A stretch of 50,417 bases of DNA from an uncultured Dictyoglomota bacterium (GCA_964654465.1 CAZZIO010000072.1:1-50417), one strand, 5' to 3'; shown: positions 26,217 through 47,972, counted from the stretch's first letter. The notes: generated by a model not told the origin, from the letters alone. Numbers and translations: made by a program.

Positions 26217-26257
26217 AAGAGGGGATAGGGATAATTTTTTAATCCTTATCCCCTCTT
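26217..26257. terminator. Bidirectional terminator at the convergence of the + and - gene blocks
   Basis: AAGAGGGGATAGGGAT...ATCCTTATCCCCTCTT. Confidence 0.8.
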
Positions 26258-27998
26258 ATCCTTTTAGTTTCTCTTTTTTAATTCTTTTTTGTTCATACAT
26301 GATTTCATCGGCTTTTTGAAGAAGATCTTCTAAAGAAACAGGATTCTTAGGATCATAGGTCACAATTCCTATACTTATAGATATCTTATAGGGTCTATCT
26401 TGCTTGCTATTGAATTCTTCTATCTTTTCTAAAAGCCTTTTAAGGACTATTTCTTTATGATTTTCTTCCCCTATAATACCCATAATTACAAATTCATCTC
26501 CACCAAACCTTGCTATAAGGTCGTTCTGTCTAAGGGTTTCTCTCAAAATATTAGCTAAATCAATAAGGGCTTGATCTCCCACCTGATGTCCATATTTATC
26601 ATTTATTTCTTTCATGTGATCAAGATCAATAAACATAACAATTATCTTTTTATTTAATCTATTAGCTATAGAGAAGGTATGCTCTGCCAGAGTCATAAAT
26701 CCACGCCGGTTGTAAAGGCCCGTTAGAGCATCGGTTATAGAGAGTAACTTTAATTCTTCTTCTAACTTCTTCCTATAAGTTATATCAAGAATTGATAGGA
26801 GTATTGATTTTTTACCTTTATAAAGAACATTAACCATAGAGATCTCTAAATATGCTATTTCGTTATTTATTTTTCTTATTCTAATTTCATCTATTATATA
26901 TTCAAAAGTATTTTCTAATATCTGATTATACCTTTCCAAAAATCTATTTTTGTCCTCTTCATAAACATATTTTGTAAAATCATTTAGAGTTTCAAGTCTT
27001 GGTGGATAACCAAGGATCTCAACAAACCTTGAATTAGTGTATATGAATTTATTATCTTGTAATAAAGAAACACCAGTAAGAGACTGTTCTGCTAAAACTC
27101 TATACCTGGCCTCAGATTCCCTTAACGCTTCTAATAGCTCAATATTCTCAAAGATTATGGCAGCTTGCATAGTAAGTGTTTCTAAATTGAGAATATCATC
27201 CTGTTTAAAAGAATTCCTTTCAAGAGACTCTAAAACTAATATGCCTAATACCTTCTCTTTACCTAATATAGGAACAGCTAAGACAGAATTTGATACTGGA
27301 TTAACACATTTTATATCTGTTTCCCCAGTATAAGGTATATAAATAGTTCTCCTTTCACTAAGAACTTTTTTTAAAATACAAGAAGGGCTTTCTAAGTCTT
27401 TTGAATAATCTAATACACTTTTTGTAGATCTTTTCAGAAGAAAATTACCATCTTTTATCAAAAAAAGATAAACAAAGGGAGCATTACTTATTTTTATAGC
27501 TCCTTCAAAAAGTTTATCAAATAATTCTTCCCTATCTAAGGTAAAAATAGATTTTTGAATATCATTTAAAACCTTTAAACTTCTTATTTGCTTTTTATAA
27601 TTTTCTTCCCTTTTTACCCTATCTGTTACGTCTTCAATTATCGCTATTATGCCTTTTTCTACATTTCCCTCTAAAAGAGGAAACATCTGTACAGTTTGTT
27701 GCATATATTTATATTCTTCATCCTTTATTTCAATAGGTATAAGGTATTTATGAAATCTTTGAGAAAGAATAACTGAACTTCCTTGCAATACCTGCTGAAA
27801 ATAATTTTCAAATCTTTTAATCTGGGGAACTACCTCAAAAATATTTTGTCCAATGATATTTTCTTTTTTTATTCCTGTATTTACTTCAAGCCACTTATTC
27901 CAAAATATAACTTTAAAATTGGTATCTGTAATGAAGATACCCCATATACTGTATTCTTCAAGCCATGTAATGAGACTACTAAGAAAAAGTTCATTCAT
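26256..27998 (-). CDS. Diguanylate cyclase, PAS-GAF-PAS-GGDEF
   Basis: TDALTGLYNRR, FIDLD, INDKYGHQVGD, RQND I-site, ARFGGDEF; no TM segment seen. Confidence 0.93.
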   Translation of the reverse strand: MNELFLSSLITWLEEYSIWGIFITDTNFKVIFWNKWLEVNTGIKKENIIGQNIFEVVPQIKRFENYFQQVLQGSSVILSQRFHKYLIPIEIKDEEYKYMQQTVQMFPLLEGNVEKGIIAIIEDVTDRVKREENYKKQIRSLKVLNDIQKSIFTLDREELFDKLFEGAIKISNAPFVYLFLIKDGNFLLKRSTKSVLDYSKDLESPSCILKKVLSERRTIYIPYTGETDIKCVNPVSNSVLAVPILGKEKVLGILVLESLERNSFKQDDILNLETLTMQAAIIFENIELLEALRESEARYRVLAEQSLTGVSLLQDNKFIYTNSRFVEILGYPPRLETLNDFTKYVYEEDKNRFLERYNQILENTFEYIIDEIRIRKINNEIAYLEISMVNVLYKGKKSILLSILDITYRKKLEEELKLLSITDALTGLYNRRGFMTLAEHTFSIANRLNKKIIVMFIDLDHMKEINDKYGHQVGDQALIDLANILRETLRQNDLIARFGGDEFVIMGIIGEENHKEIVLKRLLEKIEEFNSKQDRPYKISISIGIVTYDPKNPVSLEDLLQKADEIMYEQKRIKKEKLKG

Positions 27999-28000
27999 AT

Positions 28001-28603
28001 TTATCCAATCTTTTCAAGGCTTTCCAAAAGTCTTTCTAAGGAAGAGACTCCCAAGATTATTACCAAATATCCCTTTATACTACTATCTCTCACCTTAAAC
28101 TGAGTTATAGCTATTAAGGCATATTTTAACTCCTCTTGAGATATTACAAGAGTGTCAAGCATCACATTGAGAGCTTCTAGATGGATTTTAGGAACAGAAA
28201 AGGTAATATGAAGCTGCAATAAGTTTCCAAACATTCCAAGACATGCATTAAGTAGAATATTTCCTATCTCCATTAATACTTCTTTTAAAGATGGGGTCAA
28301 ATAATCAACTTCCAAATCTTCTCCAGATAATAGGTTTGTAAGTTTTACAGCACCCTGATAGTCTAGAAGAAGAAGTGCATCTCCTGCTACAGGTCCTGAG
28401 AATATCTGGTGTACTGTAGTCACATCGCCATTAATCTCTTTCATGAGCCTACCCTGCAATTCACCAATAGGAACTATATCTACCTTAGGTGGTTCCAATA
28501 AAACTCTGTCTCCTGTAATCTCTGATAAAGAGGCTGCAGCTCTTGAGAAAGCAATATTAATAAGCTCGGAAAGAGCATCTTTTTGATTCTCATTTAAGAT
28601 CAT
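28001..28603 (-). CDS. cheC: CheC-family phosphatase
   Basis: DALSELINIA and LMEIGNI (two ExxN motifs), FSVP. Confidence 0.85.
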   Translation of the reverse strand: MILNENQKDALSELINIAFSRAAASLSEITGDRVLLEPPKVDIVPIGELQGRLMKEINGDVTTVHQIFSGPVAGDALLLLDYQGAVKLTNLLSGEDLEVDYLTPSLKEVLMEIGNILLNACLGMFGNLLQLHITFSVPKIHLEALNVMLDTLVISQEELKYALIAITQFKVRDSSIKGYLVIILGVSSLERLLESLEKIG

Positions 28604-28606
28604 ATC

Positions 28607-28963
28607 TTATCCTCCCGAAATTTTCTTAAGAATGTTTAAAACCTCTTCCTCAACAACTGGCTTATTTAAAAAAGCAGTAGCCCCTTTTTGCGTGGCAAGC
28701 TCTTTCGTTTGTCTTTGTATATCAGCTGAAACTATTATAACCTTCGCAGAGTTATCTATTTCCTTAATTTTTTCAAGAACCTCAAGCCCATTTAATCCCT
28801 CCATAGTAAGATCCAAAAATACCACATCAGGCTTCTCAAGATAAAATTTTTCCAACCCCTCTATACCACTTCCTGCCTCAATTATTTCATGATTTTCCTT
28901 TTCTAATACTCTTTTCAAAATCCTTCTTGCAAGACTTGAATCATCAATAAGAAGAATTTTCAT
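28607..28963 (-). CDS. cheY: Single-domain response regulator (CheY-like)
   Basis: ILLIDDS, FLDLTM, SAD, KP; start adjusted to MKILL. Confidence 0.88.
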   Translation of the reverse strand: MKILLIDDSSLARRILKRVLEKENHEIIEAGSGIEGLEKFYLEKPDVVFLDLTMEGLNGLEVLEKIKEIDNSAKVIIVSADIQRQTKELATQKGATAFLNKPVVEEEVLNILKKISGG

Positions 28964-30032
28964 TATTGCTTCCCCCCATAACAAAATTTATTATCTCTTC
29001 CGCCATATTATAAAGAGGAATACTTTTATCACTTAATCCTCTCTCTTCGACAGCTCTTGGCATGCCGTAAATTATACATGTTTCCTCAGATTCGGTAAAT
29101 ACAATTCCCCCTTTTGATTTTATTACTTCTACCCCTAAGAGTCCATCATTTCCCATCCCTGTCATTATAATACCAAGAGTTCTACTACCAAATATTTCTC
29201 CTGCAGATTTAAACAAAACATCTGCTGAAGGTCTATGAAGAGTATCTAAAGGTTTTAAATCCAGTCTCACCAAAACCTTATCATCCATTTTTTCAAAGAA
29301 CATATGTTTGCCTGCAGGTGCAATATACACCTTTCCTCCCTGTAAGATATCACCATCTTCCGCTTCTTTGACCTCTAATTCAGATATTTCATTTAATTTT
29401 TCTGCAAAAATTTCTGTATATCCTATTGGCATATGAATAACAATAGCTATTGGAACTGGAAAATCCCTTGGAAATTTTGGTATTAAATACCTCAAAGCCT
29501 GTGGGCCTCCAGTAGAGATTCCAATAACCACAACATCTACTCTGGTCTTTTTAATTTCTTTTTTAATCTCTAATTTAGGTGTGGGTAAGCTTATAACTTT
29601 TTTGACTTTTTTAAGAGATATCATACTTGCGTTTTTTACTTTTTCTATAAGCTCATTGGATATCTCATAGATCTTTTCAGAGGCTAATGCAGTAGGTTTC
29701 TGTATAATATCTACTGCACCTAAATTAAGAGCCTCAATAGCTAAATCTCCTGTCTCACTCGCTATACTTACTATTACAACAGGAAGAGGCCTTCTTTTCA
29801 TTTGTTCCTTTAAAAAGCCAATACCATCAAGTCTCGGCATAATAAGGTCCAAGGTTACTACATCAGGTTTTAATTCTTCCACCTTTTCAAGAGCTTCTTC
29901 TCCATCTCGTGCAGTCCCTACTACCTCAATAAAAGGACTTTTAGAGAGAATATTAGTTAATACTTTTCTTACAAAAGCAGAATCATCTACAACCAGTACT
30001 CGGATTATTCTATCTGGATTATTTTTTGACAT
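28944..30032 (-). CDS. cheB: Chemotaxis methylesterase (REC-CheB)
   Basis: VLVVDDS, TLD..MP; GISTGGP, IHMP, RPSADVLF, TGMGNDG; start MSKNN after GGAGGTG. Confidence 0.95.
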   Translation of the reverse strand: MSKNNPDRIIRVLVVDDSAFVRKVLTNILSKSPFIEVVGTARDGEEALEKVEELKPDVVTLDLIMPRLDGIGFLKEQMKRRPLPVVIVSIASETGDLAIEALNLGAVDIIQKPTALASEKIYEISNELIEKVKNASMISLKKVKKVISLPTPKLEIKKEIKKTRVDVVVIGISTGGPQALRYLIPKFPRDFPVPIAIVIHMPIGYTEIFAEKLNEISELEVKEAEDGDILQGGKVYIAPAGKHMFFEKMDDKVLVRLDLKPLDTLHRPSADVLFKSAGEIFGSRTLGIIMTGMGNDGLLGVEVIKSKGGIVFTESEETCIIYGMPRAVEERGLSDKSIPLYNMAEEIINFVMGGSNNENSSY

Positions 30033-30855
30033 ATACAAAAGCACCTCCAATAATTTGTAAATCAAAGGAATGGGAAAATCTAAGTAAGGACTCTGATAAT
30101 CCAATAAAGAGATAACCAGGATTTTCCATATTCTCTTCAAATATCCTTATAACTTTCTGTATTATGTCATCAGAAAAATATATAAAAACATTTTTACAAA
30201 AAATAATCTTTGACTTCGATAAATCCACTATCTCTTGCTTACTTACCAAATTTGCTTTTTTCCATATAACCTTTTTATGTATATCTGGTATTATTTTATA
30301 CCCATTTTCTACTTTTATAAAATATTTATCAATTAAATCATTTGGAAAATTTCTAAAAGACCTTTCTTTATAAATTCCTTTTTTAGCCTTTTCTAAAGCA
30401 GAATTACTTATATCGCTTGCAAATATTTCTATTCGCATCTTATCAAACCAACCCTTTTCATTTAAAACAATAGCTATAGACAACGGTTCCTCTCCTGTAG
30501 CACATGCACTACTCCATATCTTTACATATCTTTCCCCTTTTTCATAAAGATCAGGAATAATATGTTCAGATAAAACTTTTAAATGTTCATATTCTCTGAA
30601 GAAATAGGTCTCTTGCACAGAAAGAGCATCAGCTATTTTATCCCATTCCTCTTTTCCCTCAGGGTCATATTTTAAGAAATAGTAATAATCAACAAAGTTA
30701 GTAAAATTCCTTTCTAAAGCAAGGGGAGTAAGTTTATCTGCTAAAATATCTTTCTTCGAATCATCGTAATATATTCCAATTTTATCTTTGATTAAATCTC
30801 TGAGAAGAGAAAAAGAATTTCCAGGAAAATCTAAAGTCTCTTGATAGAAAATCAT
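30019..30855 (-). CDS. cheR: Chemotaxis methyltransferase
   Basis: ETYFFRE, IWSSACATGEEP, ASDIS, IFCKNVFIYF, G.SESL. Confidence 0.95.
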   Translation of the reverse strand: MIFYQETLDFPGNSFSLLRDLIKDKIGIYYDDSKKDILADKLTPLALERNFTNFVDYYYFLKYDPEGKEEWDKIADALSVQETYFFREYEHLKVLSEHIIPDLYEKGERYVKIWSSACATGEEPLSIAIVLNEKGWFDKMRIEIFASDISNSALEKAKKGIYKERSFRNFPNDLIDKYFIKVENGYKIIPDIHKKVIWKKANLVSKQEIVDLSKSKIIFCKNVFIYFSDDIIQKVIRIFEENMENPGYLFIGLSESLLRFSHSFDLQIIGGAFVYVKK

Positions 30856-33566
30856 ATTTCCCTACCTTCTAATATATTTTTTACAATTTGTATAATTTCA
30901 GAATCCTTCTCTTCTAACAAGAAGTCCTTAAGGATTTTATATTCTTCTATTGAACCCAAATTGTGTAAAGAAAATATAGCTTGAATTTTTACATCCCTAT
31001 CATCGTCTTTTAAAAATTGAGCAATATATTTTGTAACCCCTTTCCTTTTTCTCTCTAAAGCAAGAATCAAAGCTTTCTTTTCTATTTTTGTTATATTGTT
31101 ACATGCTTTCAATAAATTTGGGATTTCTTCTAAAGGTATTTGAGAAAGAGTATCAATAGCCATATCTCGCTTATCAGCATATAAACTGAGAGACAATATA
31201 GCCCTATAACTTTCTAAGATACCCATTTGTAAAAAGGCCAAAAGAGCTTCTTTTATTATATCCTTATCATTTTCTGTTATAGTGCACCAAAGTATATTTT
31301 GTATCACTATAGGATTTTTCTTATTTTTTAACGCTCTTATTGCTTCTTTTTTTAAATCTTTATCTCTGGAGTTAAGAAATTGCAAAAGCAAAGGTATGGT
31401 CTCAGGATGATCTATGTTACCAAGAGCAGATATGGAATTTAATATTAAGTCTTTGTTATCAGAGTCTAAAAATTTTTGGATTAAAGGTATAGCTCTTTTA
31501 TTTCCTATCTTTCCTAAGGATTCAATAATAATAGCCTTTACTAACTCTGACTCCTCTCTGTGTAATAAATCTTCAAGCAAATCAATAATATAGGGAGGAT
31601 TATGGAAAACTAAGGATTTTACTGCATAATACCTTACCCAAGGAGAGGAATCTTTTAATGCTATCTCTATTAATGGTAATGCTTTTTCTTTTTCTATATA
31701 TATTAAAGCTCTTGCTATCACTTCCCTTATTTTTCTTTTCTCTTTTTCTAAACCACTTTTAAGAATCTCAAAAATTCTTTCATCATCAAAAAATACTATA
31801 TTCTCATATACTGCTTTCCTTATTTCTTCATTATCCTCTTCCAAAAGTTTTATTAAGTCGTCTTTATACTCTTCATATCCAAAATATCCTATTATCTTTA
31901 TAGCAGATTCCTTTTCATAACAATTATTACTTACTAAGAGTTCTTTTACCCTTTCTCTCATTTCAGGATGCCCCAAAGAATTCAAGGCAGATATTATTGA
32001 CTGTCTTATATAGGGATTAGGATGTCCTAATTTCTTAATTAATGGATCAAAAGCCCTTCTATCTCCTATTTTGGCCAACGCTCCTGCACAAACAATTGTA
32101 AGATTTTCGTCTTCTAATTGTTCTAATATGTAAGGTACTGCCTTTTTACTTCCTATTCTTCCTAAGGCCATAATAGCTAAGGTTTTTATCTCTATATCTT
32201 CATCCCTTAAGCTTTCTATAAGCAAATCCTCTATTTCTTTTCCATATTTAATAAGCACCTCAATAATTTCATTTCTCACGTTTGGATTTCCAATAAACTT
32301 TATTAAATATCTTTCCACAGTAGGATCCTTAAGGTAGGCAAGAATAGGTATGATGTTTTTTAGAGTTTCCTCTCTAAGTTTAAAAATAAAATCTAAAACA
32401 TTTTTTAACCCTTGGGGTGTTAAATTGTCCTTTATCTCTTTAGCAATATATTCACCCTCTTCGTATATGTTCTCATATCTTCTATATATTTTTCCTAAGG
32501 CCTCTAAAATATCTTCTATATATTCAGGCGATTGATTTAAATGATTTACAAGTATTTTTACTGAATTTTTATCTCCCAATTCTCCTAAAATCTCTATTAC
32601 GTGAGGTTTAAAGAGTTCATCTTCAAAATAAGGATAGATTTTCTCAATAATAGTTGGATCATTTATTTCTTTTAAGGCATTTAAAATCGCTACTCCTAAA
32701 TAATAGTCTTTACTTTCAAGAAATTTCAAAAGATAAGGTACTGCTTTTTGAGATTTTTTATTCCCCAATCCTTCTATAGCTGAAAACACCACATTAGGAT
32801 TACTATCTGAAAGGGCAGATATTAAAAGATCCTCTGCTTCTTCAAAATTAATATTTGAAAGTATCTGAACTGTATAGAGTCTTAAATCTGGATCTTTATC
32901 CTTCAACATTTGAGAAAGGGCATATAAAATATCTAAATCAGTAGTGGAGGATAGAATTTGAATCACACTATTCAATACACTCAAATTTCGGTATTCTTCT
33001 TTCATTCTCTTTAAAAGTTCATAAGCAAATTTTCCACTTTTTTTCTTTATCTCTTCCACCGCAATCTTTCTTACTTTCCAACTTTCATCATTAATAGCTT
33101 CTACTATTCCTTCATCTTCCCTTTGACTTAACTTCTTTAAAGCCAAAATTCTCTCCTTTTCATCAGGGCTTTTCAGTTTCTCTTTTAACTCCATTTCTTC
33201 TTCTAAAATCTGAGTAACATCCTCAATAGTTATTATCAAACCTACAACCTCTTTCTCTGTCTTTAGCGGGGCAATAGTAACTCTCTGTCTCATTTTATCA
33301 AAATACTTGGAAGGATAGGATAGTTCAATAGGTATAAGATACTTGTGAAATCTTGTAGATAGAATTCTTACCACACCATTTTGAAGTACTTCTTCAAAGA
33401 TTTTAGTGATACCTCTATCTATCAAATCAGGATATATCTCAGTGATTAATTTTCCAACTATATCCTCTCTTGGAATTTTTGTTTTTTCTTCTAACCAACT
33501 ATTCCAGTAAGTAATTATAAGATTTCTATCAGTAGTAAGAATACCATAATTTTCTTTATCCTCCAT
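30852..33566 (-). CDS. PAS domain plus long HEAT-repeat protein
   Basis: N-terminal PAS (GILTTD...YWN...IEDVT); many LxDxxxxVRxxAxxALG-type repeats. Confidence 0.85.
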
Positions 33567-35415
33567 TTTCTCTTTCCTCCATTTTATCCATACCTTCTTG
33601 TATCTTAGAAATACTCTTTGATAGAGCCTCTAAATTACTAATATTTCTCTTATTAGCTTCTGCTATTTCTTTTATCTGTTTTGCTATTTTGGTTATATTT
33701 TCAAACACATTTTTATTGGCAATAACTTGTTCATCCATTCCTTTCTTTATACTATTAAGTTGTTTCCTTATCATCTCTATAGCCTTCACAATTTGAGATG
33801 ATGCAATAGCTTGCTCAGATATTGCCTTACTTATACTATTAATTAATTTACCTAATCTTTCAGTTTCTTTCGCAATTTGATCACTGGCAATAGACTGTTC
33901 TTGCATAGCTTTTGCAGTGTTTAATGAAATTTTTCTCATTGAATCCACTGCTTGTACAATCTGGTTAGCTCCTTTTGCTTGCTCCTCTGTAGCCTTTTGT
34001 ACTAAGCTTGCAAGTCTCGAGGTTGCTTGCCCTGATCTTAATATTTCCCTGGCAGCTTTTGATTGTTCCTGCATAGCTTCAGTTATTTGTTTTGTTATTC
34101 TCCTAATATTGTTTACATTTTGTACTATAGAATGGGCTGTTTTATTTTGCTCTGAGGTTGCCTTTGCAATCTCTTCTGATTGTTTAGAGGTAATATTTAC
34201 GGTATTAACCATATTTTGACCTGCCACCAACTCTTCCTCACTGGCTCTTGCTATTTGAGAAATCATAAGAGTTGTCTCCTCTATTCCAGAAAGAATTCTC
34301 TTTAAAGCATTAGCTCCTTCTTCTGAAAGATTTGTGCTTTCCTCTACTACTCTTAGTCCCTCCTTAGAAGCTGACACAGCTTCTTGGGCCACTTCTTGCA
34401 AATTTCTTATAATCTTTCCAATATCAGAAGTAGCCTTTGTAGCTCTTTCTGCCAAATTTCTTATCTCCTCTGCAACCACAGCAAAACCTCTGCCTGCTTC
34501 TCCAGCTCTTGCTGCCTCTATGGAAGCATTTAAGGAAAGAAGATTAGTTCTTTCAGCTATAAGGTCTATAGTATCCACTATTTCATTAATTTCTCCTGCC
34601 CTTTTTCCCATTTCTTTAATTACCGATGATATTTGTTCCATCACATTTCTTATCTTATTGATACCTTGAATAGCTTTTTCAATTGTAATTCCCCCTTCTT
34701 TTGCCTCTCTCTCAAGTCTCTTTGAGGTTTCATCAGCTCTTTTTGTAATATCCACTACCGATCTTATAGACTTATCAAGCTGTATAGCACTTGTGGCACT
34801 ATTTTGTACCGCTGAAGTTATATCTTCAGCTCTCTTTGCCACATTCTCTATAGATCTTGCCATCTCTTCTATAGCAGTTGCTATTTGTTCCACTGATGAA
34901 GATAAATTTTCAACTGAAGCTGTTACCTCTTCAATAGAGGAGGCCATCTCATTTATAGAAGAAGTTGTTATTTCTGCAGACTGCGAAAGTTCTTTTGCAT
35001 TATCTGCTACTTGCTGAATTGAACGAGATATTTCCTCTATAGAGGATGCCGTCTGTGTTACTGCAGAGGCAAGAGAATCAACATCAGCCGTAACCCCTTT
35101 TATAGATTGGGACATTTCCGTGATACTTGCAGAAATCTCTTGAGATGATGTAGCCATCTCTTGGGACATCTGATTTACACTCTGGATCGAATTAGACAAT
35201 TCCTCTATACTTGCTGAAATTTCCTCTACTGCAGAAGAAAAACTTTCAAGGTTTTCTTTGAGTTCCTCTATAGAAGTAGAAAGTTCATTAGTAGAAGATA
35301 TGATATTTTCTGTTGAAGAAGTTATATTTTCTGATTCAATTGTTATTATCTTCAAATCTTCAGTCAATTTTTCTAATTTATCCAAATCTAACTCCTCACT
35401 TTTTCTCCTTTTCAT
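33556..35415 (-). CDS. Soluble methyl-accepting chemotaxis protein with no TM or sensor domain
   Basis: [37 protein letters not shown] at the protein midpoint. Confidence 0.93.
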
Positions 35416-37766: not shown

Positions 37767-37772
37767 CTAATT

Positions 37773-38616: not shown

Positions 38617-39252
38617 TTAAATATCAGTTAATCCATGTTTAATGGCATATTTTACAAGTCCGGGTATATCATATATTCCTAACTTATCCATAATTTGAGA
38701 TTCATGAGTTTCAACGGTCTTTACACTTAAGTTTAGTTTATTAGCTATTTCTTTAGTAGAATATCCCTCTGCTATTAACTTAAGAATCTCCTTTTGACGT
38801 TCTGTAAGAACCTCTAATGGGTTTTCAAGGAGATCCAAATAATCCTTTACTAACATTTGAGCTATCTTAGGACTAATGTATATATTACCTTCATATACTG
38901 ATTTAATTGCGAATTCCAATTCAATGAAGGAGGAATCTTTTAATATATAACCTTTAGCCCCATATCTAAAGGCTTCTCTTACATATTCTTTAGAAAAATG
39001 CATAGATAAAATAATTATCTTGGTTTCAGGTGAAATTTCTTTAATCTTCTCACAAAATCTTATTCCAGAAACCTTTGGCATTGAAATATCAAGTATTAAA
39101 ACATCTGGTTTAAGATCGGATGTTTTTAATAACGTTTCTTCTCCATCTCCTGTCTCTGCAATTACCTCTATGCCCTCAACATCCTTTAAAAGAGATTTAA
39201 TCCCTTCTCTTACCAAAGTATGGTCATCAGCAATTATAATTTTTATACTCAT
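38617..39252 (-). CDS. NarL/LuxR-family response regulator
   Basis: IADDH, LDISMP, LTERQKEIL...GYSTKEIA..L.LSVKTVETH. Confidence 0.95.
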   Translation of the reverse strand: MSIKIIIADDHTLVREGIKSLLKDVEGIEVIAETGDGEETLLKTSDLKPDVLILDISMPKVSGIRFCEKIKEISPETKIIILSMHFSKEYVREAFRYGAKGYILKDSSFIELEFAIKSVYEGNIYISPKIAQMLVKDYLDLLENPLEVLTERQKEILKLIAEGYSTKEIANKLNLSVKTVETHESQIMDKLGIYDIPGLVKYAIKHGLTDI

Positions 39253-39962: not shown

Positions 39963-40017
39963 CCCTTAATTATTTAACTTCTTAAAAATTTATATAATAA
40001 ATTATAACTAATTTCAA

Positions 40018-41334
40018 CTAAGTATCATTATCAGAAATAATCACTATAACTATATCATTCACATTTGTATGCGTAGGTCCAACTTTGATTAAATCACCCA
40101 ACTTATCGAAAAAATGATATGAATCATTATTTAGAAGATATAATACTGGATCTAATCCTAATTCTCGTGCCCTTTTAAGAGTAGTAGTATCGGCATATGC
40201 TCCAGCTGCATCACAAGGACCATCTCTTCCATCTGTGGCAAAAGCCATCATATAAACCTTCTCTAAATCATCTATTTCAATAGCAAAAGATAAAGCAAGT
40301 TCTTGATTCCTACCCCCTAAGCCACTGCCCTTTATAGTAACTGTTGTTTCACCCCCAAAAATAAGAGCACATGGTGAAGAAATAGGATTTCCTGAATATT
40401 TTATCTCTCTAACTATACCTGCAATTACCTTAGCTACTTCTCTCGCCTCACCCTCTAAAAAACCTGAAACAAGAATAGTATTGAAACCTAATTCCTTTAA
40501 CCTCTGCATCACTTTCTCTAAATAATCCCTATTAGAAAGGATAATCAAAGCATAATGCCTACTGTCGATAGATTTTGGAGTCTCTGGAATATCTCCTGCC
40601 ATTCCCTTCTTTATAAGCTCTTTAACCCTATCTGGTATCTTTTCCCATAAATCATATTTAATAAAAATATTGTAAACATCTTGATATGTGGTAGGATCAG
40701 GAACAGTAGGACCAGAAGCAATACTATCCAATGGATTTCCAAGAACATCAGATATTATTAAAGTAACAATTGTTCCTTTACATATATCAGCAAGTTGTCC
40801 ACCTTTTATCTTGCTTAAATGCTTTCTGACAGCATTTATCTCTTGTATTCTGGCAGAACATGATAACAAAAGTTTAGTGGTCTCTATCTTATCCTCAAGC
40901 AATATCCCATCTCTTGGTAATGGAAGAAGAGCTGATCCTCCACCCGATAATAAGAATACTAATATATCCCCTTCCTCCATACTTTTTACAAAATCATAAA
41001 TTTTCTCGGCAGCTTTAACCCCATTCTCATCGGGTATAGGATGAGAGGAATGTATAACCTCAATATTTCCCTCAAAAGATCCCTCATATCCATAAGGTAC
41101 TACTACATATCCTTTATTTATCAGATCTCCTAAGATTTCTATAATCCCCTCGGTCATTGTAAAAGATGCTTTACCAACGGCAAGAAGATATACTTTGCTT
41201 TTTATTTCAAACTTTCTCTCCTTTACCTTTAACAATTTATATTCTGGATCATAGGAAACATATTTTTTAATTGCATCTTTTGGATTCAAACTTCTTATAG
41301 TATCTATAATGATATTTTGTAATAAATTTTTCAC
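40018..41334 (-). CDS. Glycerate 2-kinase (type II, MOFRL family)
   Basis: GKA, HPIPD, SGGGSAL, KGGQLA, SDV.G, IASGPT, GGETTV, GGRNQE, TDGRDG, TNVND. Confidence 0.92.
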   Translation of the reverse strand: MKNLLQNIIIDTIRSLNPKDAIKKYVSYDPEYKLLKVKERKFEIKSKVYLLAVGKASFTMTEGIIEILGDLINKGYVVVPYGYEGSFEGNIEVIHSSHPIPDENGVKAAEKIYDFVKSMEEGDILVFLLSGGGSALLPLPRDGILLEDKIETTKLLLSCSARIQEINAVRKHLSKIKGGQLADICKGTIVTLIISDVLGNPLDSIASGPTVPDPTTYQDVYNIFIKYDLWEKIPDRVKELIKKGMAGDIPETPKSIDSRHYALIILSNRDYLEKVMQRLKELGFNTILVSGFLEGEAREVAKVIAGIVREIKYSGNPISSPCALIFGGETTVTIKGSGLGGRNQELALSFAIEIDDLEKVYMMAFATDGRDGPCDAAGAYADTTTLKRARELGLDPVLYLLNNDSYHFFDKLGDLIKVGPTHTNVNDIVIVIISDNDT

Positions 41335-41340: not shown

Positions 41341-43332
41341 TTATTTCATGACCTCCCTTTTTCTCAAAAAGATTAATATAATAATATTTACTGCTAAAAC
41401 TATTATAAATACTGCAAGATATAGAATCGAAGGTCGGAATTCAAAAATAGATATAAATCTTTCTTTTCTTTCCACAAGATTAAAAGATGATGTATTTCCA
41501 AGTTTTGTCATTATGAAAACTTGTCCATAAATCTTTCCTATATTCCTTATATCATCTAAAAAATTATTAAACTTAATAAGAGAACTTTCGTCATTGTATA
41601 AGATAACATATAGTTTCCCATTTCCTCCAAGAGGAGAATAATCAGATTGCATAACTATATCTGTTGTAAAACCATCGAAGAATATACCTAAATCTTTTTT
41701 AAATATAAATTTATTACCTTCTGGTTTTACCCATAGATTTTTCTCAATTTTCCTTAATCTATCATCATAGAAACTACCTATAAAGAAGATATCCTTATCC
41801 TTCATTTCCTCTTTCAATTCATTCCCTAAAATTACTTTAAAGTTATAAATATTACCTGTGTTTTGCGAAATCTTTCCTATCAATGTAGCCATTAAAGATA
41901 TTTCGTAAGGAGTTGGATTTTGAGGAAACCATATATAGATATCCTGGTAATTTCCACTCCATATGTTCCTCAAATTAGGATATTCTTCCGCATAACCTTT
42001 ATTTAAGTAAATAACAGAATCACCATCTATCTTTGTCCATGCAATCTCATCATACCTTTTATCACAATCCCCATCTTTCAATGCATGATAAACTTTTATT
42101 TCAATATTCCATTCCTTTTCTTTCAAAAGATCCTTAGGAAAATATGCTTTTAATCTTCCACTTTCTATATTCCCACCATATAACCTTTCTGCTTTTACAG
42201 GAATCCCGTTAATATACAGAGTTATACCTGATTTCTCGGGATCTAATACAGGAGAATGGGAAAATTTTAGCTCTATATAAGAACCTGTCTGTATTGATTG
42301 ATAACCTATAGGTAATTTTAAGGAGAAAGAAAAACTTTGATGATGGGCTCCTGAAATTACCACATTACTATAACTAAGATCCTTTAAAGTCAAAACCTTC
42401 TTACTTTCAATTTCTCTTTCAGATAAAGAAGGCTCCGAGGTTATGATAACAGGATTTGTCTCTGTTAATTTTACCTGCTCAGGATTCAATAGATATTTTA
42501 TAGACTTTTCAATACCCTTTCCTTTACCAGAAATATATATTTGCAAATTATCATTGTATTTAGCTAAATATAATAAACCTGAATCCTCATCTATGTTAGT
42601 AAAACTTTTATCATTAAAAATTCTCCATCTTTCTAAACTTCCAATTAATATTTGATTTTCTCCTTTTTTAACATAAGGATCATCCAAAAACACCCTAAAA
42701 GAAAGCCTTTTATATCTCTCCTTTATCGAAAGATTATTTACAAGCTTAAAGAGAATATCTAAATTTTGATTTGATACCTCATTTAAATAGATATTGGAAT
42801 TAATCACTTTTAGAGATAATAAATCCATAAAGGGATAAGGGAAATAAGAAATTTTATAAGGCTTATCTGATGTTTCAAGATGTAAAATAGAAGTATTGTT
42901 AATGATGAACCAATTAGCATCATTATCCAAATCCTTACAAGGTCCCTCAATATTTCTTTGTCTTGTAGAAATTGTTAATTCATTGAAGCCGTGCTTTAAT
43001 CTCCTTACAGGAATCTTAACAGTAAGTTTCACATAGTTTCCTTCTTTTTTTACAATAGAACTACTGGATATAGGATATCCATTTATTAAAATGGTAAAAA
43101 AAGACTCATTAGACTTTATGGTCTCTGAATAAAAGTAATTTAGATTTAAATAACACTTGTCCAATATATTTACACCTTCCGGAATATAAAACCAAAAAGA
43201 GTACCTATTTAAAGGTAAATTAAGAAGAACATCTTGAGAGGTTATAGGTAAATTGTACACTTTTATATTATCATAGCCAAAAACAGGAACCATCATTAAT
43301 ATTATGAGAAAAAGAAACAAACATCTCCTCAT
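41341..43332 (-). CDS. ydaN: BcsB-like polysaccharide synthase accessory subunit (YdaN-like)
   Basis: Signal peptide, two jelly-roll-like modules (ING.P), GPC...N..W, FPYPF, single C-terminal TM; follows the GT2. Confidence 0.75.
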   Translation of the reverse strand: MRRCLFLFLIILMMVPVFGYDNIKVYNLPITSQDVLLNLPLNRYSFWFYIPEGVNILDKCYLNLNYFYSETIKSNESFFTILINGYPISSSSIVKKEGNYVKLTVKIPVRRLKHGFNELTISTRQRNIEGPCKDLDNDANWFIINNTSILHLETSDKPYKISYFPYPFMDLLSLKVINSNIYLNEVSNQNLDILFKLVNNLSIKERYKRLSFRVFLDDPYVKKGENQILIGSLERWRIFNDKSFTNIDEDSGLLYLAKYNDNLQIYISGKGKGIEKSIKYLLNPEQVKLTETNPVIITSEPSLSEREIESKKVLTLKDLSYSNVVISGAHHQSFSFSLKLPIGYQSIQTGSYIELKFSHSPVLDPEKSGITLYINGIPVKAERLYGGNIESGRLKAYFPKDLLKEKEWNIEIKVYHALKDGDCDKRYDEIAWTKIDGDSVIYLNKGYAEEYPNLRNIWSGNYQDIYIWFPQNPTPYEISLMATLIGKISQNTGNIYNFKVILGNELKEEMKDKDIFFIGSFYDDRLRKIEKNLWVKPEGNKFIFKKDLGIFFDGFTTDIVMQSDYSPLGGNGKLYVILYNDESSLIKFNNFLDDIRNIGKIYGQVFIMTKLGNTSSFNLVERKERFISIFEFRPSILYLAVFIIVLAVNIIILIFLRKREVMK

Positions 43333-44588
43333 TATTCTGAACTCCTTTCTGTTTTATACCATTTCACAGTTTTACCTGTTATTCTATCTTTAAGAGTAAA
43401 ATAGATTGCCCTGATAACAACAAAAAGCCATAATTGACAGTATGTAAAATACATAAGACATATAAGTAGAAGATTTTTTAAATTACCTTCTCCCCTTTCC
43501 AAGCTCAAAGATATAAAAGTCTCAGTTATAAAAAGTAAATATGCTAATATCCATATAGTAAATAGAGGCCCTCCCAAATGAAGTTTTATAACTTTTAAAA
43601 GCCCCAACCCAAAAATAATATCTGATATTAAAATGGCAGAAAAAGCCACAAGATAGATGTAAGAGAAATAAATAATATCAAAAGCAATTTTGCTTCTTAA
43701 ACTAAATATATTCTTCAAATACTGAGCAATAACAGAAATATTACCTCTTGCCCATCTTGTTCTTTGTTTTATCCAAATCTTTAATCTTTCTGGCTCTTGC
43801 TCCCAAGTTACTGCTTGTGGTATCCATTTTATTCTATATCCCTCCTTATATATCCTTATAGTAAGCTCTGTGTCCTCAGTAAGGGAATGAATATTCCATC
43901 CTCCAATTTTTTCCAAAAGATCTTTCCTAATTATAAAATTGGTACCAGGAATAGTAGTAAGACCTAAAAAATAGTTTCTTGAAGCTTGAATAAGCCACTG
44001 GAAACTAAGTGTTTCTATATTTATAAACCTTGTAAGAAGATTTTTATCTTTATTTCTCGTTCTAAACTTTCCTACCACTGCTCCAAGATTATCATCCTTA
44101 ATTATAAATCTCACTAAATTATAAATTGCTTTTCTTTCTGGAGTATTATCAGCATCATAAACCAATATATAATCTCCCTTCGCTATCTTTAATCCTTGAT
44201 TTAGAGCATTTGATTTACCCTTAGCTCCTAAGGGGGGCTTAATCTCAAGTACTTTAAGATTTGGATATAACTTTTGTTTCTCTTTTAATACTTCTCCTGT
44301 CCCATCAGTAGAATTATCATTAATCACTATGATTTCAAATTTATCACGAGGATAATAAGCCCTCGCTATAGCATCTACTGTATTGCCTATAACCTTTTCC
44401 TCATTATGAGCAGGCACCAAAACAGAGATAAAAGGATACTCTTTTATCTCTTCATCTTCTTCAAAGTCTAAACTTATAAGAAAATAGCGATATCCAAAAT
44501 AGGTTAGCAAGATATGATATAAAAGAACAGACCAAGTCATTACCATGGATATTACAAAAGCATAATCCCAGAAAGTCAGAACTTTCAC
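43332..44588 (-). CDS. ydaM: Processive GT2 polysaccharide synthase (YdaM/IcaA-like)
   Basis: VPAHNEE, NDNSTD, GKSNALN, VYDAD, TEDTE, QRTRW; TM helices at both ends. Confidence 0.88.
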   Translation of the reverse strand: MKVLTFWDYAFVISMVMTWSVLLYHILLTYFGYRYFLISLDFEEDEEIKEYPFISVLVPAHNEEKVIGNTVDAIARAYYPRDKFEIIVINDNSTDGTGEVLKEKQKLYPNLKVLEIKPPLGAKGKSNALNQGLKIAKGDYILVYDADNTPERKAIYNLVRFIIKDDNLGAVVGKFRTRNKDKNLLTRFINIETLSFQWLIQASRNYFLGLTTIPGTNFIIRKDLLEKIGGWNIHSLTEDTELTIRIYKEGYRIKWIPQAVTWEQEPERLKIWIKQRTRWARGNISVIAQYLKNIFSLRSKIAFDIIYFSYIYLVAFSAILISDIIFGLGLLKVIKLHLGGPLFTIWILAYLLFITETFISLSLERGEGNLKNLLLICLMYFTYCQLWLFVVIRAIYFTLKDRITGKTVKWYKTERSSE

Positions 44589-46048
44589 TGCCTTTTTCCC
44601 CTCTCATATAATCTGATTCTGGAAAACACAAGATAAAGAATAATAACAATAAAACTTGTTACTACGAATATCAATATAATTCTTAAATATTCAACAAATT
44701 TTTCAAAAAACCTTTCTAATCTACTTTTTGAATACGGCAATACATTGCTTACAACAACTTTTTTCCCATTTTTATTCATTATTATTAAATTATTATTCTC
44801 CACATGATATGGCTCTTTTAAAAGATCAAGAAAATCATAACCCAAATCTTTCAAACCCAGTATAAGCCTTTCTATGTCTTCCCTATCTAAATATATAGGT
44901 ATAGAAATTCCTAATATGGCATCCCTCAAAGCCAAAAAATCTTTTGCTTTTCTTAAAATTAAATTCACATTCTTTGGATCCTTTGGATTATAAAAGCCTG
45001 CATTTATTGGATAGATAAGTGTATACAATCTTTTTGTAAAGACCAGATCATCACCGAGAAGGATCCTAAAGAATTTTGCAGCATCAATATATCTCTCTTT
45101 ATAAGGTACACCGTAAAATTTAAAAGCAATGGGATGTATTCCATAACTTGCCAAAAGATTTAAATCACTATTTATCTTTGAATCGTAGTTTTTCTCATAA
45201 TAACTTCCCTGTATTATACCAATATTACTATTTTCTATTTCCAATAATACCTTACTAAGCTTTTCATTATCACTAAGATAATATAATTTTCCATCCTTTT
45301 TTACTGTGGGATACACCACTATAGAATAAGGAATCTGATGACAACAGACCGTTTGAAGTTTTCCTTGAAGGAGAGATGCATCAGTAAAAGGATTTATTTC
45401 ATCAATAATTATAAGAGCTTTTTTAAAAGAAGGATACTTAATTCCTAAAATATCATGTAAAAGATCTAAAAAAACTATTCCAGTACTATCTCTAAAATCT
45501 AATCTCCCAAAATAATAAAGATTGTCCACTCGAAATACATAAGGAAAATTATTTAAATCATCAGATACATAAGACAATACATTGGCTTTTTTAGGAAGAA
45601 CTATATGAATAAAAGTTTGAGGATCAAAAGAAAGTTTATAACCCTTATAACTTAACTCTATAAAGCCGTATCTTTTTCCTACATCCTTGAATTCACTACA
45701 TCCTATATATTTTGCAAACTGATCTATATTTTCCTCAATCCAAACAATCTTTTTACTCTTTGAAATCTCTTTTAAAAAATCCCTTTTTAAGAGCTTCTCT
45801 TGAAACCCCAAATATATAACAAGATCATATTGGGTTACATCAGGTAAAAGCTCTTCACTATTTACAGATCCTACATATACTCCATAGTGGGACAAATATT
45901 CTTCCAACTGATTCCCAATTGGATAGTCTTCTCCTATTCTTGAAAAACTGTCATAGATTACTAATACTCTCTTAGTCTCCTCTGCAAAGGAGAGGGTTAA
46001 AATAATTAAGATAAGAAAGATAAGAATTATCTTAAACTTATACATCAT
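44585..46048 (-). CDS. ydaL: DUF2334 deacetylase-like protein (YdaL-like)
   Basis: Signal peptide, VLVIYD N-domain, DLLHDIL..ALIIIDEINP, C-terminal TM; position in the operon. Confidence 0.65.
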   Translation of the reverse strand: MMYKFKIILIFLILIILTLSFAEETKRVLVIYDSFSRIGEDYPIGNQLEEYLSHYGVYVGSVNSEELLPDVTQYDLVIYLGFQEKLLKRDFLKEISKSKKIVWIEENIDQFAKYIGCSEFKDVGKRYGFIELSYKGYKLSFDPQTFIHIVLPKKANVLSYVSDDLNNFPYVFRVDNLYYFGRLDFRDSTGIVFLDLLHDILGIKYPSFKKALIIIDEINPFTDASLLQGKLQTVCCHQIPYSIVVYPTVKKDGKLYYLSDNEKLSKVLLEIENSNIGIIQGSYYEKNYDSKINSDLNLLASYGIHPIAFKFYGVPYKERYIDAAKFFRILLGDDLVFTKRLYTLIYPINAGFYNPKDPKNVNLILRKAKDFLALRDAILGISIPIYLDREDIERLILGLKDLGYDFLDLLKEPYHVENNNLIIMNKNGKKVVVSNVLPYSKSRLERFFEKFVEYLRIILIFVVTSFIVIILYLVFSRIRLYERGKRQ

Positions 46049-46883
46049 ATTTACTACTATCTTTTGCTCTTTCCCAAATAATCAGTGTATCTTCACCTTC
46101 CTGGAATTCTGCCTCACCAATTTTAATTTTTAATGATATAACCCTTCTTTTTCCTCCTATTTCAACAATGATCTTATCCAAAGCTCTATGAAGTTTCTCC
46201 TTTACTATTTTTACGGAATTGATATCAGTATCTGGCAATATGATGCCCAAAACTCCATCTTCTATTCTTCCTTTTATGTCTGTAGTCCTTGTATTCTTTA
46301 AGATTTCATTTGCAATTACCCTTAAGATACTCTTATATCCATCCTCTCCATATATATTCTTCAATTCCTTCCAATCCACAATATTAATGTAAAGTATAGA
46401 AAAAGTCTCCTTATACCTTTGTGCCCTCTTAATCTCTTCTTCTAATCTCTGAAAAAACCCAAAAGGATTATAAAATCCAGTAACATCATCTAATAAAACC
46501 AATTTTTCCCTTTCCTCAAATTCTCTAAGCCTTTCCTTCAAAACCCTAAATTCCCTCTCCAAACTTCCCGAAAGAAAAGCTCCTACAGGAAACGAAACTA
46601 ACCAAAAAGCATATTCCAATTTAAACTCAGAAATAGTATTCAATACTATAATGGAATATAAGAGATAGGATCCGTACCCAAAAACTAAAAATAAAGAAGT
46701 AATTAAGCCAGCTACTATCCTAAGATTATAGGCTATCAACATATTCAAAATAAGAGCAGAAAACAATAAGTAATTAATAAAATTTACATTATAGCTAGTA
46801 CTAAATATTACTATTAGAATTAAAAGCCAAAAAATTAACAAAAGGCTAAAAATAAGATTATCTTTCATAAAATTCCTTTCCAT
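46038..46883 (-). CDS. ydaK: Membrane-bound degenerate GGDEF c-di-GMP receptor (YdaK-like)
   Basis: 4 TM helices, coiled coil, DDVTGFYN, intact RTTD I-site, GGDEF replaced by EDGVL. Confidence 0.82.
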   Translation of the reverse strand: MERNFMKDNLIFSLLLIFWLLILIVIFSTSYNVNFINYLLFSALILNMLIAYNLRIVAGLITSLFLVFGYGSYLLYSIIVLNTISEFKLEYAFWLVSFPVGAFLSGSLEREFRVLKERLREFEEREKLVLLDDVTGFYNPFGFFQRLEEEIKRAQRYKETFSILYINIVDWKELKNIYGEDGYKSILRVIANEILKNTRTTDIKGRIEDGVLGIILPDTDINSVKIVKEKLHRALDKIIVEIGGKRRVISLKIKIGEAEFQEGEDTLIIWERAKDSSKYDV

Positions 46884-47972
46884 CTACTCCTCCATATAAC
46901 TTAATGTCAATAATACTTCTAATTGATCAAAAGCATAATAGACCTTCCCTAAAAAATCTCCGTAACCCGAAGAAGATCTACCACTAAATTTTTCAACAAA
47001 ATTTAATATCCTCTTAGCCCCTATTCTATCATTACAAAAAATAAATAACCTTGCTAAAATAGCATATATTGCTACATTCTCTTCATCTTTTAGCACTTTA
47101 TGATCCATATAGAATGTATTTAATTTGTTATAGTTATTTATTTCATTTTTTACAAACTCTAAAAAGCCTTTTATTTTATTCGTATCATCAAAATTTATAG
47201 CAGTAATTACCTGTTCCAACATATTTAGAGGATAATAGGTCTTATAGGAGAAAGTAAAGAAGTCAAATTCCTTAGGGAAAAAGGGACTATTTATGGATAC
47301 GGAGTTTTCAAGGATCTTTTTTGATGTAATGTAGTATTTATTAAAGGAGGGCAATATTTCAGCTATCTTTTTCAATTTCCTAAGATCTAAATAGAATAGA
47401 GAAATTTTATTAGCTTTTTCTTTCATATTTCCATCATAATAATCTACAAAAAATTCTCCTGATGAATTAAATTTCAATATTCCATCTGCTACTTTTTCTC
47501 CCATTTCCATATACTTTTTATCCTTAAAAGTATCATAAGCACATAAAAGAGCATACAAGATCCTTATAGAGTCTATTAAAGCAGTACTATTATCAGGTCT
47601 CAAGTTTAACCTATTTATCCTCCAATATAGATATCCTTCTTTACTATAAAAATATTTATCTACTATTGAAAGAAGAATATCAAAAAGATTTTTGTCTCCC
47701 CTTAATAAAGCATATTCCATTAATTCCCCATAGGATTCCAGAAGGGAATATTCCAAAGGCTTTCCATTTTCTATTTTTGATATGATAAATCCCCTGTTAT
47801 CAATAAAATCTCTTCTAATAAAACTTAATAGTTCTTTCTCTTTATATGATACACTCCTTTCCATAGCTTTAAGTTCATTTTTTAATTTAAATCCATAATA
47901 ATAATCTTTTATTTGAAAGATAATAATAATCAATATAATAGAAAACAGGAGAATTAAGAATAAATTTCTTAT
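46884..47972 (-). CDS. ydaJ: GH8-like six-hairpin glycoside hydrolase (YdaJ-like)
   Basis: LLESYGELMEYA, YLYWR, STALIDSIRI, ISLFYLD, YAFDQL; start uncertain (TTG 47933 or ATA 47972). Confidence 0.7.
   Translation of the reverse strand: MRNLFLILLFSIILIIIIFQIKDYYYGFKLKNELKAMERSVSYKEKELLSFIRRDFIDNRGFIISKIENGKPLEYSLLESYGELMEYALLRGDKNLFDILLSIVDKYFYSKEGYLYWRINRLNLRPDNSTALIDSIRILYALLCAYDTFKDKKYMEMGEKVADGILKFNSSGEFFVDYYDGNMKEKANKISLFYLDLRKLKKIAEILPSFNKYYITSKKILENSVSINSPFFPKEFDFFTFSYKTYYPLNMLEQVITAINFDDTNKIKGFLEFVKNEINNYNKLNTFYMDHKVLKDEENVAIYAILARLFIFCNDRIGAKRILNFVEKFSGRSSSGYGDFLGKVYYAFDQLEVLLTLSYMEE

Follow-up and report, generated by a model that had tools for sequence, protein, structure and literature searches.

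Chemotaxis-like pathways with a role other than motility are common in genomes, but only a handful of them are understood. The known route from such a pathway to cyclic di-GMP (c-di-GMP), the Wsp system of Pseudomonas, uses a receiver (REC) domain on the cyclase: WspR is a REC-GGDEF protein phosphorylated by a CheA homologue, the Wsp receptor is membrane-bound, and the kinase is a CheA-REC hybrid. Clusters assigned to alternative cellular functions (ACF) have as their outputs, in the part of PMC3447774 that deals with them, REC domains fused to histidine kinases, GGDEF domains and similar modules, and papers citing the Che7 system of Myxococcus xanthus relate that CheY7 acts on the HEAT-repeat protein Cpc7 (PMC11514114, PMC9040617). 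On the receiving side, passages of PMC5422440 describe Bacillus subtilis YdaK, in which R202 and D205, five residues before the degenerate site SDERI, are needed for exopolysaccharide (EPS), and PMC4125290 gives a dissociation constant of 0.79 µM for c-di-GMP binding by Listeria PssE. Here, we describe a locus from an uncultured hot-spring bacterium of the Dictyoglomota in which relatives of both kinds of system lie next to each other. The locus is part of a stretch of 50,417 nt, called the window throughout, with coordinates counted from its first letter. Its part A (41341-47933) is a predicted Yda/Pss-type polysaccharide operon, and its part B (26256-39962) is a che cluster of a widespread class that ends in a diguanylate cyclase. 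The best explanation of the arrangement is that these are two separable modules placed side by side by an accident of lineage, with the cyclase as the probable output of part B and the receptor of part A as its possible target. Taken as a whole, this account seems to us evenly poised between right and wrong.

The five genes of part A, all on the minus strand, run in the order of ydaJKLMN. The first (46884-47933; 349 amino acids) encodes a YdaJ/PssZ-like protein, recognised through orthologues, an AlphaFold2 model and Foldseek. It has no Pfam match itself, while 3 of 16 orthologues match PF01270 (GH8; best E 1.4e-6). The model has a predicted local distance difference test score (pLDDT) of 93.5, and its Foldseek matches are headed by 3ren and then 6r2m, the Listeria PssZ structure (template modelling scores 0.74-0.82), followed by BcsZ and GH8 glucanases (E 4e-20 to 1e-8). 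Judged from this model, the protein is a likely GH8-fold hydrolase of the kind belonging to Yda/Pss operons. The second gene (46038-46883) encodes a YdaK/PssE-like protein of 281 amino acids with a degenerate GGDEF domain (E 2.3e-20). Hydropathy marks its N terminus as hydrophobic over residues 10-81, with multiple transmembrane segments, and its motif reads RTTD(199)-IKGRI-EDGVL(208), which places RxxD five residues before the degenerate GGDEF site. Both RxxD (R199-D202) and an RxxR (R153-R156) are invariant in all five orthologues, and the GGDEF position itself drifts among them (EDGVL, DEFSL, DESTI). In these features it corresponds to the membrane-bound GGDEF protein, catalytically degenerate yet with its I-site intact, that belongs to Yda/Pss operons, and it is a predicted I-site receptor for c-di-GMP.

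Three further genes complete part A. The YdaL-like protein (44585-46048; 487 amino acids), with transmembrane segments at its N and C termini, scores 18.1 bits against the DUF2334 family PF10096 (E 0.0021), below the cut-off of 26 bits, and 8 of 18 homologues carry PF10096; the closest Atlas cluster is named YdaL (score 0.97), which we take as a lead only. The YdaM/PssC-like family 2 glycosyltransferase (GT2; 43332-44588; Glycos_transf_2, E 5.6e-34) is a membrane-embedded, PgaC/IcaA-like synthase with transmembrane segments, and its PgaC_IcaA match (E 9.7e-55) stays under the equivalog cut-off. The YdaN/PssD-like protein (41341-43332) belongs to the BcsB family (E 5.1e-36) and shows by hydropathy an N-terminal signal or transmembrane segment and a C-terminal transmembrane anchor. 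The two are the membrane GT2 and BcsB-like partner expected of Yda/Pss operons.

Because of the gene order and motifs, the GH8 fold with its PssZ match, and the presence of DUF2334 in homologues, we assign part A to the Yda/Pss type. An earlier note on this DNA had likewise read it as a polysaccharide operon with a YdaK-like receptor, a reading that our results support. With high confidence, we regard part A as a putative c-di-GMP-gated EPS machine. In such a machine, the membrane GT2 and its BcsB-like partner would make and export the polymer, the GH8-fold hydrolase and the DUF2334 protein would process it, and c-di-GMP bound at the RxxD I-site of the membrane protein with the inactive GGDEF domain would switch synthesis on. 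An alpha-L-fucosidase gene (47978-49378, minus strand; Pfam Alpha_L_fucos, E 9e-105) lies directly upstream of the YdaJ-like gene, in this genome as well as in two other members of the phylum (G002 and G009), and is probably transcribed together with part A.

Part B comprises twelve minus-strand genes in the order histidine kinase, NarL, CheY-CheY, CheA, CheW, methyl-accepting chemotaxis protein (MCP), PAS-HEAT, CheR, CheB, CheY, CheC, PAS-GAF-PAS-GGDEF. The histidine kinase (39249-39962; HisKA_3 and HATPase_c) has no sensor domain and measures 237 amino acids as called, against 217-219 in relatives; it is followed by a NarL/LuxR-type response regulator (38617-39252; REC and GerE) and a tandem-receiver CheY-CheY protein (37773-38510; two REC stretches, E 9.4e-56) with the acceptor contexts FVDIVM and ILDLNM present. 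CheA (35847-37766) has Hpt, dimerisation, ATPase and CheW-like domains, carries HTIKG at residue 55, lacks a REC domain, and is the sole H-kinase_dim match of the 1.91-Mb genome, which is 99.97% complete. CheW (35396-35872) was recognised by Pfam, and the 619-residue soluble MCP (33556-35415; MCPsignal, E 2.5e-45), the only one of the genome, has neither a transmembrane segment nor a recognised ligand domain. Next come a PAS-HEAT protein of 904 amino acids (30852-33566; HEAT_2, E 2.5e-87, and an N-terminal PAS domain), CheR (30019-30855), CheB (28944-30140), whose true start is probably the ATG near 30032 (relatives have 359-368 amino acids), and a single-domain CheY (28607-28984), these last three by Pfam. 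A CheC/CheX-type phosphatase (28001-28603; CheC and CheX matches) carries D-x3-E-x2-N at residue 9, and the diguanylate cyclase (26256-27998; GGDEF, E 2.7e-42) closes the cluster with the motif RQND(490)-LIARF-GGDEF(499), in which GGDEF and RQND are both kept in all three orthologues. In Pfam and NCBIfam scans, the cyclase gave no Response_reg match.

By hydropathy, the MCP, the histidine kinase, the PAS-HEAT protein and the cyclase contain no membrane segment. FHIPEP (FlhA), the sole flagellar marker searched, had no match in this genome or in ten further genomes of the phylum. Matches to PilB/PilT-type ATPases number four in this genome, and all 11 phylum genomes have such ATPases, with or without che genes. 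These observations support the view of part B as a cytoplasmic, non-motility chemosensory system, and with it the earlier note's inference of a pathway that does not serve motility. Domain content and acceptor residues fit a standard adapting array of soluble MCP, CheW, CheA, CheR, CheB and a CheY reset by CheC.

The PAS-HEAT protein turned out to mark a class of chemosensory clusters found well beyond Dictyoglomota. It has 99 homologues, and those of about 900 amino acids are 25-60% identical over 96-100% of the length; their sources include Syntrophales, Syntrophorhabdaceae and Melioribacteraceae, and Acidobacteriota are the most frequent source of the Atlas clusters. In metagenomes, a 32-row PAS-HEAT alignment retrieved 489 relatives among 600 pattern matches, from which 80 loci were kept, 4 of them Dictyoglomota-like and 76 from outside. 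Counting for each gene only those outside loci that had room for it, the upstream side of PAS-HEAT held an MCP in 53/53, CheW in 46/46, CheA in 34/34 and a REC gene in 30/31, and the downstream side held CheR in 58/59 and CheB, CheY after CheB, and CheC in 49/49, 49/49 and 47/47, respectively. PAS-HEAT thus stands between MCP and CheR nearly without exception, and the cluster in the window shows the class order REC, CheA, CheW, soluble MCP, PAS-HEAT, CheR, CheB, CheY, CheC. NarL is upstream in 9 of 26 outside loci, accompanied by a histidine kinase in 4. A scan with a CheA alignment, using N-terminal patterns, yielded two loci only, both from Dictyoglomota.

Among 21 proteins scanned beyond the cluster in outside loci, there was no common theme and there were no pilus genes. 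Three loci (L030, L038, L064) have, after the first CheC, a second gene of about 320 amino acids with REC and a CheC-like C-terminal part, which either precedes a longer PAS-GAF-PAS kinase or follows the cyclase. Literature searches on Dictyoglomus with chemotaxis, rotund bodies, c-di-GMP or exopolysaccharide produced nothing on this system, and searches pairing HEAT with chemosensory terms, judged largely from listings, produced no description of the class. As far as we found, the PAS-HEAT class is therefore a widespread chemosensory class with a fixed gene order that had gone undescribed.

What ties the cyclase to this class is its N-terminal PAS domain. This domain is 41.5% identical to the PAS domain of the HEAT protein, compared with 25.8% to its own genomic paralogue. 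Of 44 outside loci with 450 nt or more of sequence past CheC, 43 have a following gene that starts with a class-type PAS domain; the exception, L085, has a REC-ParA-like gene after CheC. In a tree of 110 PAS domains, built from few columns and including some long branches, a single branch (SH-aLRT 97) splits 66 HEAT-type domains from 44 domains of the gene after CheC, here called X-type, and none of 500 label shuffles equalled this separation. The PAS domain of the window's cyclase falls in the X clade and that of its HEAT protein in the H clade. Two clean clades imply that the duplication is older than the spread of the class and that both copies were retained. We consider the cyclase to be probably an integral output of part B, as the earlier note had assumed in counting it with the che genes: it fills the conserved PAS-X slot, which is the strongest evidence that it is integral to the che system and not a chance neighbour, and the block that it closes is kept in a second genus.

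The enzyme in the X slot is exchangeable. Across 24 outside loci (27 proteins), the slot holds a PAS-HisKA-HATPase-REC hybrid kinase in 15, a kinase without REC in 5, a GGDEF protein in 3 (L025, L040, L064) and another protein in 1. At L040 (15669-18926), a PAS-PAS-GGDEF gene after CheC is followed by a PAS-HD-GYP gene, and both products start with the class-specific PAS domain; they form a putative synthesis/degradation pair under the same input domain. The class, strongly conserved and present in hundreds of metagenome contigs, thus has the paired PAS domains as its constant link, and a kinase or a cyclase as its output. If the PAS pair couples the array to the enzyme, it would represent a new wiring principle for chemosensory outputs. 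It is tempting to go further and to envisage a phylum-spanning class in which a PAS paralogue pair replaces the receiver link and couples the array, physically or chemically, to an exchangeable enzyme, be it a hybrid kinase, a plain kinase, a cyclase or a cyclase with an HD-GYP partner, with the Dictyoglomota cyclase feeding a Yda/Pss machine; this extended version we put forward tentatively, as a rather unlikely one. If true, the surface coat of a thermophile without a flagellum would be under adapting control of the chemotaxis kind.

A model of the PAS domain (pLDDT 94.6) gave generic PAS, LOV, heme and photoactive yellow protein matches in Foldseek, with template modelling scores of about 0.6, so that the fold, as modelled, appears generic. 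The idea of a heme-binding PAS domain, raised by an invariant His and Met 16 residues apart, was dropped after a structure-profile search retrieved phytochrome C-terminal PAS domains and 3mxq and no heme sensor above E 1. Ten residues are identical between the PAS domains of the cyclase (from residue 81) and the HEAT protein (from residue 72) in this genome, and the HEAT PAS domain of the genus labelled g3 differs at this stretch (IHRYLFSAK, IHHYFFSVK); the shared residues may reflect gene conversion between the PAS paralogues in this lineage. A complex prediction for PAS-HEAT residues 1-850 (32-row alignment) with cyclase PAS residues 1-140 (37 rows) gave no answer, with a score of 0.00 in both runs, and does not bear on binding either way.

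The layout of the locus is compact. All open reading frames (ORFs) across 26256-50386 are on the minus strand and, according to Pfam and NCBIfam scans, read from the fucosidase through the yda-like operon and a glycerate 2-kinase-like gene (40018-41334; DUF4147 and MOFRL; NF041176, E 5e-88) to the histidine kinase, NarL, che and cyclase genes. The gene list in the earlier note was correct throughout, apart from its omission of this glycerate 2-kinase between the two parts. Its description of one strand with small gaps or overlaps also agrees with our coordinates: the gaps measure 44 nt between fucosidase and YdaJ-like gene, 6 nt between BcsB-like gene and kinase, 55 nt between kinase and histidine kinase, and 106 nt between NarL and CheY-CheY, and the remaining junctions from fucosidase to cyclase are at most 6 nt or overlapping (4 nt of overlap for histidine kinase and NarL). 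The hairpin that the note saw as the first terminator is equally borne out. It lies directly after the stop codon of the cyclase (about 26212-26261, minus strand), resembles an intrinsic terminator with a U-rich tail, and has a free energy of -22.9 kcal/mol (z -2.74); minus-strand terminator-like sites inside genes occur at chance level in consensus scans (6 against 6.8 expected, 7 against 4.5 expected). The note's further statement that the window is devoid of flagellar and pilus genes is in line with the absence of any match to these families in the 20 ORFs with 140 or more amino acids in 1-26202, although the genome encodes type IV pilus ATPases at other places.

At the boundary between the modules (39963-40028, minus strand), the 55-nt gap contains a promoter-like sequence, ATGATA-16-TATAAT at 40028-40001, with 10 of 12 consensus matches; such sites are at chance level in AT-rich DNA, and promoter-like sites in the consensus scans were no commoner than in shuffled sequence (66 against 71.2, 67 against 64.3). 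In the spacer between NarL and CheY-CheY, aligned from four genomes, the length of about 106 nt is kept and sequence conservation is patchy; no operator could be called from this four-genome alignment.

We compared the locus across 11 Dictyoglomota genomes from three genera, among them the source genome (G000). G002, of the same genus and about 90% identical, has the same arrangement of fucosidase, ydaJKLMN, kinase, histidine kinase, NarL and che genes. In this genome and in the metagenome contig L019, an additional 231-amino-acid ORF without Pfam match, missing in the window, directly precedes the histidine kinase (L002:15596-16291, L019:2938-3633); over this ORF and the histidine kinase, the DNA of L019 is 94% identical to that of G002. 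G009 and G010, from another genus, keep the block from NarL to the cyclase at 57-78% identity. NarL is ahead of CheY-CheY at a distance of about 106 nt in G002, G009 and G010. In genus g3, the che block opens with NarL, which stands behind divergently oriented genes, and the block must therefore have its own start and promoter there. In G009 (L004:3920-5272), a PAS-HD-GYP gene, with a PAS domain that is not class-specific, lies divergently beside a sensorless histidine kinase 2.4 kb upstream of the che block. The glycerate 2-kinase stands between the modules in the window and in G002, and beside neither yda nor che genes in G009, G010 and G007.

Five of the 11 genomes (G000, G002, G007, G009, G010) have a YdaK orthologue, and all five hold a cyclase of the cluster type at 58% identity or more. 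G007 keeps ydaKLMN, and its che genes have decayed to a remnant (L011:3390-7142 on contig C14) with fragments of CheR and CheB and intact CheC (200 amino acids) and cyclase (577 amino acids). G001, G003, G005, G006 and G008 are without both modules, and the nine genomes that are at least 99% complete divide into four with both and five with neither. An RpoB tree places the holders in two separate clades, (G000, G002) and (G009, (G007, G010)), and in one of these the modules are unlinked. Both modules are accessory in Dictyoglomota, having been repeatedly lost, and two complete genomes of the same genus do without them, so that genus-wide traits cannot depend on them; the suggestion that the pathway bears on rotund bodies is weakened accordingly. 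Between a glutamate-synthase-like gene (24634-26202) and the fucosidase, the content varies among genomes: the interval spans 21.8 kb here, compared with 11.2 kb in G001 and 14.7 kb in G003, two complete genomes of the genus, of unrelated transporter and AraC-type regulator genes. G001 has a relic (C1:241707-243267), about 70 kb from its fucosidase locus, in which HEAT residues 427-754 (56-59% identity, one TAG) run into cyclase residues 334-577 (66%); apparently, a deletion has joined the HEAT gene to the part of the cyclase gene for the C-terminal half.

Does the cyclase of part B specifically feed the YdaK-like receptor of part A? We find this plausible, although our judgement leans slightly towards doubt. 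The link is suggested by the adjacency of the modules in two species, their shared phyletic pattern, and the survival of cyclase and yda genes in G007. Furthermore, a search of the genome for PilZ domains found none, and the YdaK-like protein is therefore one of few recognisable receptors. Several observations weigh against the proposed circuit. The co-location of producer, controller and receptor, from which the earlier note had started, is not conserved: in G009 and G010, the yda operon is on a different contig from the che block, tens of kb from any contig end; L019 has GntR and dehydrogenase genes in place of kinase and yda genes, with the break exactly at the gap between kinase and histidine kinase; and yda genes are near none of the 76 outside class members. 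In G004, a genome that is 72% complete, che genes and fragments of the cyclase are present, and no YdaK orthologue was found. The co-occurrence was observed in 11 related genomes and may go back to no more than two independent events. In the window, the modules are kept apart by a glycerate kinase gene unrelated to them and by a gap with a promoter-like sequence. About 10 GGDEF loci, about 9 HD-GYP proteins and no EAL domain were counted in the genome, and MshEN domains on two pilus/secretion ATPases (877 and 563 amino acids) are alternative receptors, so that other producers and receivers are available and the term self-contained, used for the circuit before, was an overstatement. Most outside X slots hold a kinase (20 of 24) and yda genes are absent from their surroundings, so that control of EPS is not a property of the class itself. 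Finally, the cyclase has no REC domain, which excludes control by CheA via the known Wsp route and with it a Wsp-like mechanism, and coupling of array and cyclase through the PAS domains is conjectural. In the same genome (C6:4727-6876), a GGDEF gene stands beside an HD-GYP gene, and a 39-residue upstream stretch shares 51% identity with the beginning of the cyclase PAS domain (E 2e-6).

The broken synteny, the intervening kinase gene, the variable interval and the abundance of other c-di-GMP proteins could also be read to mean that the modules are neighbours by accident in function as well as in position, the receptor reading a pool filled by several cyclases and the cluster cyclase serving the MshEN ATPases or the global pool. 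We think this alternative rather improbable: every genome with yda genes carries the cluster-type cyclase and five complete genomes have neither, G007 has retained cyclase and yda genes while its che genes decay, and the particular cyclase DgcK serves YdaK in B. subtilis according to passages of PMC5422440, making a dedicated producer a known pattern. At the other extreme, the whole 21.7 kb, beginning upstream of ydaJ and ending with the terminator at 26.2 kb, might be a single operon encoding a closed circuit of producer, controller and receptor. The single strand, gaps of no more than 106 nt, internal terminators not above chance, a strong hairpin only after the cyclase and the like arrangement in G002 are what such an operon would look like. 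We hold it to be improbable, since the che block of genus g3 starts at NarL behind divergent genes and so has its own promoter, synteny breaks at the gap between kinase and histidine kinase where the promoter-like sequence lies, and the many other GGDEF and HD-GYP genes leave the circuit open.

Two further explanations concern the output of part B. The cluster might signal mainly by phosphotransfer to transcription, through the histidine kinase, NarL and the CheY proteins, with the cyclase as a parallel PAS sensor outside the control of CheA and CheY. NarL is conserved as the first gene in Dictyoglomota and appears upstream in some outside loci, partly with a histidine kinase, the cyclase has no REC domain, and kinases or hybrid kinases in 20 of 24 X slots point to phosphorelay outputs. 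However, NarL is missing from 17 of the 26 outside loci with room for it, whereas the PAS-X gene is nearly universal (43/44), and the class-wide maintenance of two PAS paralogue clades ties X to the system; we consider this explanation unlikely. Steering of type IV pilus motility (twitching taxis), for which the four PilB/PilT-type ATPase matches and a possible reading of c-di-GMP by the MshEN domains on two of them could speak, seems to us very improbable. The ATPases occur in 11/11 phylum genomes, including those without che genes, pilus genes were seen neither in the window nor among the 21 proteins beyond outside clusters, and a CheA-REC hybrid as in Pil-Chp systems is absent.

We therefore return to two separable modules, with a cyclase that is part of the chemosensory system and that might supply the neighbouring receptor. 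In this model, the soluble receptor array would set the activity of CheA and adapt through CheR and CheB; phosphorylated CheY, reset by CheC, might act on the PAS-HEAT protein, as CheY7 does on Cpc7 in Myxococcus. The paired PAS domains could then pass the state of the array, or a shared signal, to the cyclase that has no receiver domain, and the resulting c-di-GMP would be read by the YdaK-like receptor, turning polysaccharide synthesis on. The sensorless kinase and NarL may add a transcriptional arm. Since the cyclase lacks a receiver domain, the step from array to cyclase cannot use the Wsp route. What is observed in all this are the domains, the motifs, the synteny, the paralogy of the PAS domains and the common phyletic pattern; the contacts between proteins, the binding of c-di-GMP and the step from cyclase to receptor are inferred. 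With a single CheA, a single soluble receptor and a single cyclase, and with a polysaccharide synthase whose I-site receptor can be recognised, the Dictyoglomota form would make a compact test case.

Elsewhere in the window are transporters, glycoside hydrolases and similar genes. Upstream of the fucosidase on the minus strand is an aminotransferase gene (49403-50386; Pfam/NCBIfam). Within 4363-6979 and 12826-13995 are a GH16 protein with CBM4_9, a polysaccharide deacetylase encoded on the other strand, and a GT4 gene after an ABC-2 transporter pair. On the plus strand, 20728-22206 encodes a 492-amino-acid protein with an N-terminal DUF4388 (E 8.6e-18), of which a 41%-identical homologue is encoded in the variable locus of G001.

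Compared with B. subtilis, part A has its five genes in the same order, namely GH8-like, transmembrane with degenerate GGDEF, putative DUF2334, GT2 and BcsB-like, and the RxxD five residues before the degenerate site and the upstream RxxR of the receptor are both likened to YdaK from its description in passages of PMC5422440. The degenerate site reads EDGVL here instead of SDERI. In contrast to B. subtilis, a fucosidase precedes and a cyclase-ended che cluster follows the operon; there, the same passages describe an operon driven by SigB, with the gene for the cyclase DgcK at another place (PMC5422440). The Pss system of Listeria monocytogenes, likened by description too, also combines a GT2 (PssC), a BcsB-like protein (PssD) and an I-site GGDEF receptor (PssE), and the crystal structure of its PssZ is matched by our hydrolase model. 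The receptor gene is last in pssA-E and second here, and the Listeria locus is without chemosensory genes, unlike the one described here. The gene for the PssZ-type hydrolase in Listeria is in an operon with two cyclases and a phosphodiesterase, in the portion of PMC4125290 that covers it, so that c-di-GMP enzymes beside Pss genes have a precedent.

For part B, Wsp is the obvious point of reference as a non-motility che cluster with CheR and CheB in which the last gene makes c-di-GMP and a matrix output is expected. Unlike Wsp, the cluster in the window has a soluble receptor, a CheA without REC, a PAS-HEAT protein and CheC, and its cyclase is of the PAS-GAF-PAS-GGDEF type without REC. Myxococcus Che7, as represented in the papers that cite it, is alike in having a HEAT-repeat protein inside a non-motility che cluster and a single-domain CheY as the proposed partner; the HEAT protein here differs in its N-terminal PAS domain, which is paired with a PAS domain on the terminal enzyme. 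The ACF clusters resemble the class in so far as its commonest terminal gene (15 of 24 loci) encodes a PAS-HisKA-HATPase-REC hybrid. In contrast to ACF, however, the X enzyme is without REC in Dictyoglomota and in 7 of 24 outside loci, and it is the PAS domain, not the receiver, that is constant.

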